Shown piece after piece: positions 32,601-35,600 of a stretch of 64,000 nt of DNA. Location: positions 2,336,001 to 2,400,000 of the forward strand of contig OY968796.1 in the NCBI GenBank assembly GCA_963695545.1, given 5' to 3'. A program made the position numbers. How positions within the stretch are numbered: position 1 is the stretch's first letter; every line of letters begins with the position of its first letter. Source of the stretch: Terriglobia bacterium. GTDB lineage: Bacteria > Acidobacteriota > Terriglobia > Acidiferrales > UBA7541.

Positions 32601-35600
32601 CGCGCCCGGCCAGCGATTCAAGATACGCCGGCAGCGTGGCCACGAGCGTTTTGCCTTCGCCGGTTTTCATCTCGGCGATGCGCCCTTGATGCAGCACGAC
32701 TCCGCCGATCAATTGCACATCGAAGTGGCGCATTCCCAGCGTGCGACGGCCGGCCTCGCGCACCGCGGCGAAGGCCGGTTCGAGCACGAGATCGAGCGCC
32801 GCATTCACCAGCTGCTTGTACTCGAAGCTCCTGCGGTAATCAGGATCCTCGTTGGTGTCTTTTGCGAGTTCCGCCTGAACCACGGCGCGCAACTCGACCG
32901 TCTTGGCGAGCAGCTCCGCGTCGGTCAACGCCTCAAATTCGGGCGCGAGCGCGTTGATGGCGTCCACGCGCGGCTGAATTTTCTTGATGTCGCGCTCGTG
33001 CTTGGTGCCGATAAAGCGCGCGACTACGCCATCTATGATTTCTTCGACTTTCATCGTTTCCCTGAGGTGGCTTCTCCGCGGAGCGTACGCCGTGCGCCGC
33101 TCGAAAATCGCCCGTATACAACAGAAGCAGTCCCACTGCCCCGGGACTGCTTCCGGTGAAGTCTGGACGACAAAATCATTGTACCGCGCCCGGCGCGCAG
33201 GGTGCAAAGTAGGGCGGCGGGGGTTGCTGGAGCGGAGGTGGAAATGGGATCAGGTATATATACCCCCGGTATATTTTGCGAAAGTGCAGTAAACAAAGGG
33301 GATGCAGGGAAAGAGTGCGGATGAGTGTGAAAAGACAGTGAGTTAAAAGTTCTTTGTTTGAATGAGTTGCGCACTCTTTTGTAATGCATTGAAAACAATG
33401 TGGTTGCGGACGGGGATAATGCGATGAATGGAGCGACGCGGTTCACTTCGGGCGTCCCGGGGAAAAGTGCGCGGGCACGACAATTCGAATTGGTGGGAGA
33501 GAACACGGAAAAAGGTAGCATAACTGTATAACAATGTCAAGTACTACTTGAGTATTCGAAACAATTTCCACAGGGTGAGAAGATTCCGAAAGCCCAATGG
33601 CAAATCCAACTCGCCCGCGAGCGGCGGGGCGGGCGCGCGGGGTAGCGGGAAGGGCGTGACTCGGGCAGTCCCAGCGCCCTTGCTGTATTGCAGGGTGACA
33701 CCCGGCGCGTTCTCGTTCAGAATGAAGTGTTCGCGGCGGCGTGCGTGCCGTCGCAGGGAGAAACCGACCGATGCCGCCAGGCCCAGCAGCGCCGCAAGAA
33801 CGGATGCCCATCGAGGGCGTGAAGAATTTGATTGTGGTCGCCAGCGGGAAGGGCGGCGTTGGCAAAACCACGGTGGCCGTGAACCTGGCGATTGCGCTTT
33901 CGCGCATGGGTTCGGCCGTGGGCTTGCTCGACGCCGACGTATATGGGCCGAATGTGCCGCTGATGCTGGGCACGCAAGAGCAGCCGCAGGCGCTGAGCGA
34001 GCGCGAAATTCTGCCGGTGGAAGCGGGCGGCTTGAAAGTGATCTCGATGGGCCTGCTGATGCCCGGCGATAAGCCGATGATTTGGCGCGGGCCGATGTTG
34101 CACAGCGTAATTTTGCAATTTTTGCGCAGCGTGGTGTGGGGCAAACTCGATTACTTGATCGTGGATTTGCCGCCGGGCACGGGCGACGTTCATCTGACGC
34201 TGATTCAAACTGTGCCGGTGACTGGCGCGGTGGTGGTGACCACGCCGTCGGTTGTGGCGCTGGCTGACGTGCGCAAGGCGATTGAAATGTTTCGCCAGGT
34301 GAACGTGGAAATATTGGGCGTGGTCGAAAACATGAGTTATCTGGTTTGCCCACACTGCCAGGAGCGCATCGATGTTTTCGGCCAAGGCGAAGGGCGCCGC
34401 GTCGCCGAACAGTTTGGCGTGCCGCTGCTGGGCGAAATCGAAATCGATCCGAGGATTCGCATCGGCGGCGATACGGGCAAACCTGTGGCCGCGCAGGGAG
34501 AAGACGCGCCGGGCGCCGCGAGCATTTACGCCATGGCCCGCGCGGTGGCCGCGCGCGCGGAAGAAGTTCGCAGCGCGGGGGCCGGGCCGCGCGTGCAAAT
34601 CGTGTGAATGCCGAAGCTTCCGCGCCACTTCGTTCAAATGTTTGCCTTCAGCGTTTCACGTGGAACTCCTGGTGTGCGCGTGGGCACCGAGAGCGCCGCT
34701 CGCATCGCGTCGCTGCGGCGCGATTTCTTGTCAGCCTCGAAGGCGTGTGCTAGCGTGACAATTCGAGCGATGTTTTTTCGCGCGCGGGACGCGCGTGAGT
34801 TTCCGAGTGCGCGCCGAGTTCTTCGGGTGAGCCAGGTGGCTTTGTGATTCGCAGCTATCGCGGGCAGTGGCCGAAGATCGCGTCGTCGGCGTACGTTGAT
34901 CCGGCGGCGACGGTGATCGGCGACGTGAGCATCGGCGAATCTTCGAGTGTGTGGCCGGGCGCAGTGATTCGCGGCGACGTGAACGTGATTCGCATTGGCT
35001 CGCGCACAAATATTCAGGACGGCGCGGTGCTGCACGTAATGCGCGAAAAATTCGGGCTTGAGTTGGGCGATAGCGTGACGGTCGGGCACGGCGCCGTGCT
35101 GCACGGCTGCCGGATCGAATCGCGCGTGCTGATCGGCATGGGCGCGATCGTGTTGAATGGCGCGCGCGTCGGAGAGGGTTCGATCATCGCCGCGGGCACG
35201 CTGGTACTCGAAGGCACGATTGTGCCGCCCGGATCGTTGTTTCTGGGACACCCCGGGAAATTTCATCGCGCGCTCACGCCGCAGGATTTGGATGGAATCG
35301 ACCGTTACGCCGCGCGTTACGTCGAGTACGCCGAGACATACAAGGCCGAAACCGCGGCCGAGGAAAGCCGGCACCAGTGAAATTTCAGGCCATTAAGGGC
35401 GTGCGCGACATTTTGCCACCGGACTCCGCGCTGTGGAATCGCGTGGAGCAGACCGCGCGCGAAGTGTTTGGCACATTTCGCTTCGCCGAAATCAGGCTGC
35501 CCATTTTCGAGCAAACGCAGTTGTTCGTGCGTTCGATCGGCACGGATACCGATGTGGTCAGCAAGGAAATGTTTTCCTTCGACGAGCAGGGAGGCGGCGC

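Follow-up and report, generated by a model that had tools for sequence, protein, structure and literature searches.

Upstream of secA (30184..33054, minus strand; Pfam SecA_DEAD, P-loop_SecA, SecA_SW and others), in the genome of a soil bacterium from an uncultured Acidobacteriota lineage, lies an uncalled open frame of 151 codons plus TGA (33051..33506, minus strand) that belongs to no Pfam family and that begins inside a repeat present in many copies. We sought to determine what keeps such a frame open. The genome, G000 where genomes are compared, is one contig of 4.16 Mb; positions written with two dots count along the window, the whole 64-kb stretch of DNA that was analysed. We propose that the repeat is neither a gene nor a structured RNA gene and that it acts as a leaderless, ribosome-escorted transcription module, a reading of the sequence that we give an even chance of being right.

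Promoter, start codon and repeat family

The copy upstream of secA (33244..33576, minus strand, as are all its parts) is the best member of its family (nhmmer, 5.7e-87, model positions 3-336). Read towards secA, it carries a TTCGAATA box (33553..33560) and a putative promoter (33512..33540) composed of a -35 TTGACA (33540..33535), a 17-nt spacer with TG (33520..33519) and a -10 TACCTT (33517..33512), in columns that are ~99% conserved in the 80-copy consensus; a generic promoter scan missed it because this -10 matches TATAAT at only 3/6 positions. A GTG (33504..33506), 5 nt past the -10, would serve as a leaderless start and sets what we call frame 0. There follow a C-rich, G-poor linker (33441..33503), which differs among copies in length (35 lengths across the family) and sequence and in this copy holds a second ATTCGAAT palindrome (33483..33490, inside the frame and confined to subfamily A), and a conserved AT-rich core (33262..33440), read in two of its three phases in the family alignment, with palindrome arms at 33379..33370 and 33319..33310 and an end palindrome, ATATACCGGGGGTATAT, around 33277..33256. 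Beyond the repeat, the frame continues through unique flank, across a perfect 11-bp hairpin followed by TGTTGTAT (33124..33153; terminator-like call at 33142..33124), to an ATGA (33051..33054) in which its TGA (33053..33051) overlaps the secA ATG (33054..33052).

This architecture recurs across the family, as sequence statistics show. In 73 of 80 full copies, TTGACA, a spacer of 16-18 nt and TAnnn(T/G) are followed by ATG or GTG (RTG) after 5 nt (71 copies) or 6 nt (2 copies), and conservation is 90-99% in the columns of the -35, the -10 and the RTG, despite an identity of only 70-83% among paralogous copies. The initial annotation had counted promoter and start in 53-57 of 81 copies and had left 24 of 81 without either. 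With its strict pattern we found a promoter in 58/80 copies and a start in 55/80; the copies that seem to lack a promoter mostly belong to a third subfamily whose -10 is TATAAG, and relaxing the -10 to TAnnn[TG], the pattern that defines the 73-copy set, makes the arrangement more widespread than was claimed. The family consensus also includes a box, TATTCGAATA, 20-27 nt 5' of the -35, found 49 times genome-wide where 0.9 would be expected.

The fixed distance of 5 nt in 71/80 copies leaves no room for a Shine-Dalgarno sequence, and we infer that the transcript of this putative, near-consensus sigma-70-type promoter begins at the R of the RTG and that the ribosome initiates there. In PMC3160421, leaderless genes are predicted in 3/3 Acidobacteria genomes, at 13.3% on average. 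Against the leaderless reading, the weak -10 signal that precedes called genes genome-wide peaks at 6-9 nt, with nothing at 5 nt, so that transcription from the repeat could start 1-2 nt later and miss the codon.

The third nhmmer iteration returned 139 matches to the ~350-nt repeat, of which 80 are full copies (at least 250 of 338 model positions covered), close to the 81 proposed earlier. All 80 are intergenic, with no gene overlap, by a crude gene caller (3189 genes, coding fraction 0.83), and they are 242-552 nt long. Short, non-autonomous and intergenic in its 80 copies, the repeat resembles MITEs. Like the Neisseria Correia elements and other promoter-bearing MITEs, as described in PMC10969869, and like the 'promoter reuse / putative mobile promoters' reported in PMC3575422, it bears a sigma-70-like promoter, often lies 5' of unrelated genes and varies in presence among relatives. 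It differs in that terminal inverted repeats were not seen in the one copy examined and no target duplication could be read, that its copies are old and mostly conserved in position, and that a start codon stands at the predicted +1 of a frame kept open. The word 'leaderless' has no occurrence in the accessible text of PMC10969869, a review of MITEs and dispersed repeats, and a literature search found no paper joining leaderless, miniature inverted-repeat and promoter.

The suggestion that the element is mobile retains weak support from filled and empty sites (L146 holds ~553 nt against 42 nt in G000; L137, L154 and L157 are similar), but ~22 of 38 congener copies occupy the same loci as those of G000, identity among copies is 70-83%, and readable ends, target duplication and terminal inverted repeats were not found. 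In a pairwise alignment of a filled and an empty site, checked for ends and target duplication, the junctions were too diverged to be read, and terminal inverted repeats were absent from the one copy examined, that upstream of secA, whose sole flanking inverted pair is a GC-rich 14-mer outside the shared sequence, the remaining pairs being internal. The earlier report of the repeat in a second genus was not reproduced: BLAST with the secA-upstream copy matched 5/31 relatives, all of its own genus (g1), and, at E<=1e-8, 1/29 genera in a set of 151 genomes of the family. For taxonomic range, genome contigs were also scanned with an exact 20-mer, which hit 1 locus only and so was too strict a pattern.

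Frame-specific absence of stops

Up to the end of the repeat, stops number 9/110/157 in the three frames of the 73 copies (frame 0 first, here and below), and frame 0 is open throughout in 66, against 12 and 9 for the others. The 55 copies of the strict-pattern set (stops 7/116/128; open 50/4/3) bear out the earlier counts of 14/117/111 stops and of 45 open frames in 53. Openness sets in at the start codon: the first 60 nt past it hold 0/18/11 stops, and 17 copies have an in-frame stop at most 15 nt upstream of it. In the linker, which is unalignable and variable in length, there are 0/27/25 stops in 7277 nt, and the Poisson probability of none in frame 0, with 26 expected, is 5e-12. By these statistics, the frame opens exactly at the RTG and its openness is kept. 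It extends for at least 200 codons in 27/73 copies, against 10 and 6 in the other frames, and uncalled frames of this kind number ~100, with lengths of 90-1287 codons.

Chance, base composition or the shared ancestry of the copies could be thought to produce such a pattern. The sense strand is C-rich and G-poor (C 0.396/G 0.226 in the linker, 0.293/0.163 in the core, 0.346/0.258 in the flank), and the scarcity of G lowers TAG and TGA; common descent leaves two of the core's three phases open in most copies (43 and 45 of 68); and codon-aligned shadow frames are common genome-wide. Yet the other frames hold 110 and 157 stops, the linker is free of them in frame 0 at the probability given above, and 34 of the 35 distinct start-to-core distances (72-354 nt) avoid the core's single closed phase (binomial 1.3e-5), with core columns read in two phases by 36 and 30 copies. 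The frame controls lead us to reject this explanation, in which we place almost no credence. Two other candidates were also rejected. A gene on the antisense strand of the repeat is contradicted by the many stops in each of the three antisense linker frames (26/48/29), and triplet-repeat slippage as the keeper of the frame by linkers that do not align and by orthologous indels whose lengths are not multiples of three.

The peptide appears to matter little. Among 39 loci fetched from two congeners, G003 and G004, promoter and RTG are present at 29, where stops number 6/57/70 and 27/2/2 of the 29 frames are open, in accordance with the openness claimed for congeners before. Across 12 pairs of orthologous copies, the three codon positions have 0.457/0.431/0.424 substitutions, gaps fall 20/37/20 by length modulo 3, and the frames are still open; this persistence through frameshifting divergence is likewise shown statistically. 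Since orthologs differ by frameshifting indels and evenly spread substitutions, it is openness, not peptide, that is selected, and the statistics support a frame kept open whatever the peptide that it encodes.

If instead the frames encoded genuine proteins, disordered or evolving fast, the element would donate N-terminal extensions and make fusion proteins. That ten long frames enter genes in frame, with Pfam domains from residue 122 or beyond (Usp, iPGM, ThiI, CN_hydrolase, EPSP synthase and others), and that in-frame entries in congeners number 7 versus 2 and 2, lends some support to this idea. It is difficult to reconcile with a core read in two phases, with uniform substitutions and non-triplet indels, with GC by codon position of 0.61/0.62/0.65 where genes have 0.64/0.46/0.73, and with fusion in G000 at chance level (10/9/6). 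A single phase, third-position bias and triplet indels, as expected of a protein-coding family, are not seen in these frames, a Pfam search of the repeat-encoded N-termini and of three frames in the 64-kb window found no family, and we regard the protein interpretation as very improbable.

The core raises the possibility that an operator, a promoter and a protein-binding or structured leader act as DNA or RNA only, the frame having no translational meaning. Conservation of nucleotides is seen in both the TATTCGAATA box and the core, it is 95-100% in the palindrome arms across the family, and the RNA of 33390..33300 in the secA-upstream copy folds at -16.6 kcal/mol (z -4.3 against shuffles). 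However, RNAalifold on 66 cores yielded no consensus structure, stem columns were invariant or broken and never compensated in a manual pair count, and Rfam gave no match over the repeat at the gathering score or at E<=1. Nor can an account of this kind explain the frame-specific loss of stops in the linker (0/27/25), in the flanks and in convergent genes, and we find it quite improbable, although the core may have a DNA or RNA role alongside translation. In the escort model, the core, conserved without covariation and read in two phases, has no role, which we count against that model. The core as a structured RNA was dropped given the empty RNAalifold consensus and conservation without covariation, and as a (bidirectional) intrinsic terminator given a 10-bp stem, a 50-nt loop, a U run within the stem and a negative terminator scan.

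Co-oriented and convergent genes

The initial annotation placed the repeat in front of genes that it would drive and translationally couple. As worded, the first part is not supported: a co-oriented gene lies ahead of 55/80 copies, the remaining 25/80 point at the 3' end of a convergent one, and copies in tandem intergenic regions divide 27:17 by orientation (two-sided p=0.17). Of the 55 co-oriented genes, which include secA, thrS-like, relA/spoT, thiI, aroA-like, lpxD, fabH and several glycosidases, 49 have diverse Pfam families. For 50 co-oriented copies, the unique flank (9924 nt in all) holds 35/70/78 stops and is open in 30/15/19, and the flank openness claimed from 40 copies (22/55/49; 26/13/17) was seen again. 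Coupling itself stands in part. Measured from the repeat end, RTGA overlaps with the co-oriented start number 11/0/5, and frames ending between -30 and +40 nt from that start 14/8/6; on the other hand, frame 0 continues in phase into the gene no more often than expected by chance (10/9/6), and SD-like motifs are not depleted before RTGA-overlapped genes (6/10 versus 39% genome-wide).

These copies invite a narrower model, in which a mobile promoter with a leaderless uORF drives the next co-oriented gene by termination-reinitiation and the convergent-facing copies are by-products. The 55 co-oriented copies and the diverse families of their genes, the RTGA overlaps, the near-start ends and the open flanks all speak for it. 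We nevertheless consider it unlikely, as tandem orientation does not depart from even, SD-like motifs are undepleted, and the model does not predict the codon alignment, the long antisense runs or the threefold codon depletion of the convergent-facing copies described below. The escort reading has its own difficulty among co-oriented copies, in ~17 of which frame 0 stops well before the gene.

In front of convergent genes, frame 0 is codon-aligned with the gene that it enters from the opposite strand in 19/22 copies (p=4e-7), and 17 convergent-facing copies have an antisense run of 199-1199 codons; the genes crossed include aconitase, EF-G, RNase E/G and release factor. Genome-wide, aligned antisense runs of 200 codons or more have a background of 0.296, and alignment itself has a probability of 1/3; these values weigh against chance here as well. 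Because the frame is kept open antisense through the convergent gene, coupling to a downstream gene cannot explain these copies. In copies 2548695, 671417 and 3245762, the frame crosses the convergent gene and ends at the next co-oriented start; the 443-codon frame of the first crosses a ZIP-transporter gene and ends there in RTGA. An example in the window is a second full copy (23000..23385, minus strand; nhmmer, 4.8e-32), with decayed -35 and -10 and a retained GTG at 23327, whose frame 0 (22659..23327, minus strand, 222 codons) runs antisense into a convergent alpha/beta-hydrolase gene (21958..22938, plus strand; Pfam Abhydrolase_1).

The convergent genes contain 24 TTA, CTA or TCA codons in 11161 (0.00215), against 0.0065 in controls matched on codon score and length, and 0/2000 resamples were as low; this all-target test shows a threefold depletion in antisense-stop codons. 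A pre-existing codon bias was rejected because the matched controls fall short of the observed depletion. Wrong-strand gene calls were rejected as well, Pfam families being found in the convergent genes (9/11 and 15/17 tested) and none in the sense frames. Orthologs of five convergent genes have a single antisense stop (1 in 3185 codons) at loci with the repeat, with 0/788 in G003, and 184 in 34859 at loci that lack it, or 169 in 32165 when the unpublished genomes G007 and G025 are set aside. This contrast is biased in part, four of the five genes having been picked for zero antisense stops in G000; the only comparisons free of such bias are the all-target test and that of the two G003 orthologs (p=0.018). 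The aconitase gene, a single case, has 1 antisense stop where 13 orthologs have 2-9. A convergent gene call of 115 aa with no family (1811338-1811685) is probably spurious; leaving it out gives an alignment of 18/21.

Predicted mechanism, precedents and further sites

In the escort reading, the TATTCGAATA box and the near-consensus sigma-70-type promoter would be followed by ATG or GTG at the expected transcript start, so that a 70S ribosome could initiate on the 5' end without a leader. The ribosome, present from +1, would trail RNA polymerase through the C-rich, G-poor leader and beyond, the nascent RNA would never be exposed to Rho or to folding, and selection would maintain only the absence of stops in frame 0. 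Transcription and ribosomes would reach the next co-oriented start through an RTGA overlap, a nearby stop or an occasional in-frame fusion; in copies facing a convergent gene, they would be carried antisense across it. The transcription start, translation, the part of Rho and any regulatory use, whether activation in sense or interference in antisense, are what we infer from this arrangement. Sites of Rho loading (rut) are C-rich and G-poor. A leader of this composition and a rho gene, as a uORF-controlled Rho-dependent attenuator would need, are both present here (RNA-binding domain 44367..44588, minus strand, PF07497, 122 bits, in an open frame of 448 aa). The long nonsense proteins that antisense frames would yield should be costly, which we count against the escort reading.

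It is possible, and we suggest it tentatively, that the ~100 modules with the same TATTCGAATA box constitute one regulon, with frames open to downstream starts and antisense across whole convergent housekeeping genes, in which some genes would be turned on and others silenced by translated antisense transcription that Rho could not stop. Since the frames are open antisense across convergent genes, the synonymous codon choice of those genes would then be constrained by translation of the opposite strand.

'Pervasive translation in M. tuberculosis' (PMC9094748) is reportedly part of the precedent for leaderless and overlapping uORFs. In Mycobacterium tuberculosis, translated, overlapping uORFs have been proposed to suppress Rho-dependent termination (bioRxiv 10.1101/2022.06.01.494293), and that source describes an RTG at the transcript start (predicted here), translation without peptide selection, NUGA overlaps and Rho suppression in leaders. 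Those uORFs have few codons, whereas the frames described here have 90-1287, lie on a module repeated in ~80-100 copies and run antisense through real genes. Long antisense transcripts of the excludon type resemble the antisense frames. So do the long antisense overlapping genes or 'shadow ORFs' reported in PMC8850804 and PMC7103648, in being long open frames antisense to annotated genes; ours form a class of ~17-19 frames, all opened by the same promoter and RTG module, and nothing suggests that their product matters. Rickettsia palindromic elements, as described in PMC10969869, also have a repeat frame that joins host ORFs in frame, but they insert inside genes and encode a conserved peptide, whereas our repeat is intergenic, its peptide is unconserved and fusion is at chance.

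If the escort reading is correct, selection has here favoured translation purely as an escort of transcription, on a module that is both repeated and portable; a family of promoters imposes codon constraints on its neighbours through the antisense strand; and dozens of unrelated genes can be rewired simultaneously by a dispersed element. With its many natural replicates, the family would then lend itself to tests of transcription-translation coupling, Rho polarity and leaderless initiation beyond model organisms, and would call for caution in annotating both the ~100 uncalled frames and N-terminal 'extensions' of real genes.

The module also occurs outside full copies, where promoter and RTG open frames of at least 60 codons at 28/33 sites, against 5 and 3 for the other frames. 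One promoter-only module lies in the window (58027..58096, minus strand; partial nhmmer match, model positions 14-89), with TATTCGAATA at 58085..58076, a -35 at 58061..58056 and a -10 at 58037..58032; the GTG at 58026 opens a frame of 132 codons (57628..58026, minus strand) that matches no Pfam family.

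A dispersed promoter that opens a stop-free frame

Iterated nhmmer searches seeded with the copy upstream of secA found 139 matches to the element in the host genome (4,159,512 bp, one contig, GC 60.6%; its SecA shares 72-74% identity with MAGs of uncultured Acidobacteriota that carry the label Acidiferrales or Acidoferrales). Eighty matches span at least 250 of the 338 model positions and are counted here as full copies; some of the short matches are the element's own palindrome found on the opposite strand. The consensus of the 80 copies begins with a TTCGAATA box and an AT-rich stretch, followed by TTGACA, 17-18 nt ending in TG, a -10 of TAnnnT, 5 nt, and then ATG or GTG (RTG). 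Downstream lie a C-rich linker, unalignable among copies, and then the AT-rich core, some 185 nt long, that contains an imperfect palindrome, AAAGAGTGCG ... CGCACTCTTT, and terminates in ACCGGGGGTGTATAT. The secA copy occupies 33576..33244 of the window on the minus strand, and its frame runs from GTG 33506 to TGA 33053..33051, which overlaps the ATG of secA. Two further members of the family lie in the window, one a full copy (23385..23000) and the other a promoter-only module (58096..58027). Rfam has no family over the repeat, the only window matches at gathering score being two tRNA genes (54143-54226, minus strand; 58265-58336, plus strand).

The initial annotation had reported that the frame set by the RTG (frame 0) stays open through the repeat. 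We confirm this: a strict promoter pattern gave 55 starts, with 7/116/128 stops and 50/4/3 open copies in frames 0, +1 and +2, close to the earlier numbers. The copies it had taken to lack a promoter are mostly a third subfamily with a -10 of TATAAG. When the -10 was relaxed to TAnnn[TG], the RTG lay exactly 5 nt past it in 71 of 80 copies (44 ATG, 27 GTG) and at 6 nt in 2 more; across these 73 copies, stops between RTG and repeat end number 9/110/157 and the frame is open to the repeat end in 66/12/9. The congeners G003 and G004 have promoter and RTG at 29 of 39 fetched loci, 27 of which are open in frame 0, against 2 and 2 in the other frames.

Shared ancestry of the copies does not account for this frame. 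Between start and core there are 35 different spacings (72-354 nt), just one of which gives the closed core phase, where TGA and TAA are conserved, rather than one of the two open phases; the unalignable linker has 0/27/25 stops over 7277 nt; openness sets in at the RTG, with 0/18/11 stops in the next 60 nt and in-frame stops no more than 15 nt upstream in 17 copies; and the opposite strand of the repeat has no ORF.

Sequence comparison indicates that selection acts on the openness of frame 0 and not on a peptide. Copies differ in the phase in which they read the core (36 in one, 30 in another), GC per codon position is flat in the linker (0.61/0.62/0.65, against 0.64/0.46/0.73 in genes), and Pfam has no family in any repeat-encoded part. 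About 22 of 38 congener copies share loci with copies of the genome under study (G000), and 12 orthologous pairs, compared from the start through 150 nt beyond the repeat, are just 42-63% identical. Their substitutions fall evenly on the codon positions (0.457/0.431/0.424) and their gap lengths modulo 3 number 20/37/20; despite this divergence, both members of a pair retain an open frame.

The core palindrome is kept across copies, yet without covariation, and the core of the window copy folds better than shuffled sequences (z -4.3). With a loop of 50 nt, it does not resemble a terminator. The linker of the secA copy carries a third copy of the core-arm motif, AAAAGTGCGC (33463-33472), complementary to the arm at 33369-33378, and CACTCAT occurs three times in the core consensus. 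Several subfamily-B linkers (G000 copies, named by contig position, 2975406, 1529244, 3849249, 2218223, 2955822 and 4026711) enclose a perfect palindrome of type GCCTGCCTGCCGGCAGGCAGGC, possibly a second small repeat family, that leaves frame 0 unclosed. The unique flanks of copies 1810821 and 3245762 have a hairpin repeat, GTAGCGGAGGCCTTCAGGCCTCCAGCCTTTTC, in common, inside frame 0. Subfamily C (for example 2899762, 2603056 and 1299204) is preceded by a conserved CCCGTAGGGGCGACACAATCTTTTCGAA segment that has one or two extra TTCGAA boxes, and the element may therefore reach further 5' there.

Genes faced by the element

As judged by our own crude gene caller, 55 of 80 copies face a co-oriented gene, and 49 of these genes have Pfam families of unrelated functions, including SecA, a class II tRNA synthetase, RelA/SpoT, ThiI, iPGM, EPSP synthase, a FabH-like protein, LpxD, NAD synthase, BipA, MsrB, peptidases, two fucosidases, GH3, an encapsulin shell protein and Usp. 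The orientation bias is modest (27 co-oriented against 17 anti-oriented copies in tandem intergenic regions, p=0.17). In the unique flanks of 50 co-oriented copies, stops number 35/70/78 and the flank is open in 30/15/19. Counted from where the repeat ends, the frame closes in an RTGA overlap with the co-oriented start in 11/0/5 cases, ends between -30 and +40 nt from that start in 14/8/6, and runs on in frame into the gene in 10/9/6; in-frame fusion is therefore at chance. These counts suggest that what is favoured is ribosome delivery to the downstream start codon, rather than fusion. RTGA-overlapped genes show no depletion of SD-like motifs (6 of 10, against 39% genome-wide), so they may not depend strictly on coupling. 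Three copies (2841274, 4026711 and 1709361) have a frame 0 open for 617, 630 and 244 codons that overlaps a real co-oriented gene out of frame; the background rate at which sense alternative frames reach 200 codons or more is 0.4% (+1) and 6.8% (+2).

Unexpectedly, 25 of 80 copies have a convergent gene ahead of them, its 3' end towards the element. The genes are real, with Pfam families in 9 of 11 and in 15 of 17 of those tested, and none in the long co-directional frames. They include aconitase, EF-G, RNase E/G, NAD kinase, FtsJ, an ABC ATPase, an aminotransferase, a fumarase/aspartase-type lyase, a peptide-chain release factor, a second EPSP-synthase-family enzyme, a ZIP transporter and glycosidases. 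Of the 22 copies having a start, 19 have frame 0 in codon alignment with the stop codon of the convergent gene (expected 1/3; p=4e-7), and frame 0 continues for 199-1199 codons beyond the repeat in 17 of the 19, several runs spanning two or three successive genes. As background, 29.6% of 1878 genes across the genome have a codon-aligned antisense frame that runs from the gene's 3' end for 200 codons or more without a stop; for the remaining two antisense frames the share is about 1%. Such frames are a trap for gene callers; a shadow ORF of 667 codons (window 31156-33159, plus strand) runs antisense to secA. Frame 0 of copy 2548695 crosses the convergent gene and ends in an RTGA overlap on the next co-oriented gene, and those of 671417 and 3245762 do likewise but end 69 and 41 nt before it.

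Codons that read as stops on the antisense strand (TTA, CTA, TCA) number 24 of 11161 (0.00215) in the first convergent genes, against 0.0065 in controls matched on codon score and length, with 0 of 2000 resamples as low. For five convergent genes, orthologs with the repeat in the locus (five from G000, two from G003) have 1 such codon in 3185, against 184 in 34859 without it (169 in 32165 minus the unpublished genomes G007 and G025). Since four of the five genes were chosen for zero antisense stops in G000, only the test over all targets and the G003 cases (0 in 788 codons; p=0.018) are free of bias. Transcription-linked mutation bias would, by reasoning, act in the opposite direction, because C-to-T change on the non-template strand creates TTA, CTA and TCA in the gene. 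The architecture, the frame-specific lack of stops and the antisense codon depletion are supported by sequence statistics.

Ribosome escort as a possible mechanism

A leaderless start is suggested by the fixed 5-nt gap, by openness that begins at the RTG and by the lack of space for a Shine-Dalgarno site. An earlier study predicted leaderless genes in 3 of 3 genomes of Acidobacteria (PMC3160421). Across the genome, TANNNT shows mild enrichment 6-9 nt upstream of called starts (41/26/32/34, against about 20), and SD-like motifs are most frequent at 5-9 nt; this suggests a mixture of SD-led genes and some native leaderless ones. The -10 signal of called genes is weak, with a maximum at 6-9 nt and not 5, which counts against a leaderless start. 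The sense strand is C-rich and G-poor (C/G 0.396/0.226 in the linker, 0.293/0.163 in the core, 0.346/0.258 in the flank), a composition on which Rho loads, and a rho gene lies in the window (Rho_RNA_bind domain at 44367-44588, minus strand, 122 bits; open frame 448 aa). We therefore propose that a ribosome beginning at +1 would escort RNA polymerase and that transcription would end wherever an in-frame stop left the RNA exposed; if so, selection would clear stops over whatever length of transcript is needed. Transcription start, translation itself, the involvement of Rho and any regulatory logic are what we infer here. About 17 co-oriented copies whose frame 0 ends well before the gene count against escort. 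The initial annotation had proposed mobile cassettes that drive and translationally couple downstream genes; this is partly supported, in that the RTGA overlaps favour delivery to the start codon, and the antisense runs across convergent genes require a wider reading.

Known systems each resemble one aspect: promoter-bearing MITEs (e.g. Correia elements) and 'promoter reuse' the dispersed promoter, mycobacterial leaderless and overlapping uORFs the part given to translation and Rho, Rickettsia palindromic elements the in-frame merging, and long antisense overlapping ORFs the antisense frames. Translated and overlapping uORFs are proposed to suppress Rho termination in M. tuberculosis (bioRxiv 10.1101/2022.06.01.494293). 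In none of the compared systems does a repeated promoter come with a start codon at +1 and a frame kept open for hundreds of codons, sense and antisense. A search limited to an open-access collection yielded no paper combining 'leaderless', 'miniature inverted-repeat' and 'promoter', and the word 'leaderless' is absent from a MITE review (PMC10969869).

Spread of the element and its promoter

Among the relatives searched, the family was found only in one genus (g1), being abundant in G000, G003 and G004 with few or partial matches in G001 and G002, and was not found in the 28 other genera searched in the same taxonomic family. Most copies share positions between congeners, and at some loci one genome has the element where another lacks it; neither filled and empty sites nor the window copy established element ends, a target duplication or terminal inverted repeats. 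Paralogs are 70-83% identical, promoter hexamers about 99% conserved and linkers saturated with change, a pattern suggesting that the element spread in an old burst and was afterwards retained by selection.

Of 100 genomic occurrences of the pattern TTGACN-N16-18-TAnnn[TG]-N5-RTG, 67 fall inside full copies. The 33 sites outside them have a TTCGAA box in 21 cases and an RTG frame of at least 60 codons in 28, against 5 and 3 in the other frames. The sequence TATTCGAATA, 20-27 nt upstream of the -35, occurs 49 times in the genome against 0.9 expected, and looks like a putative binding site of a shared regulator.
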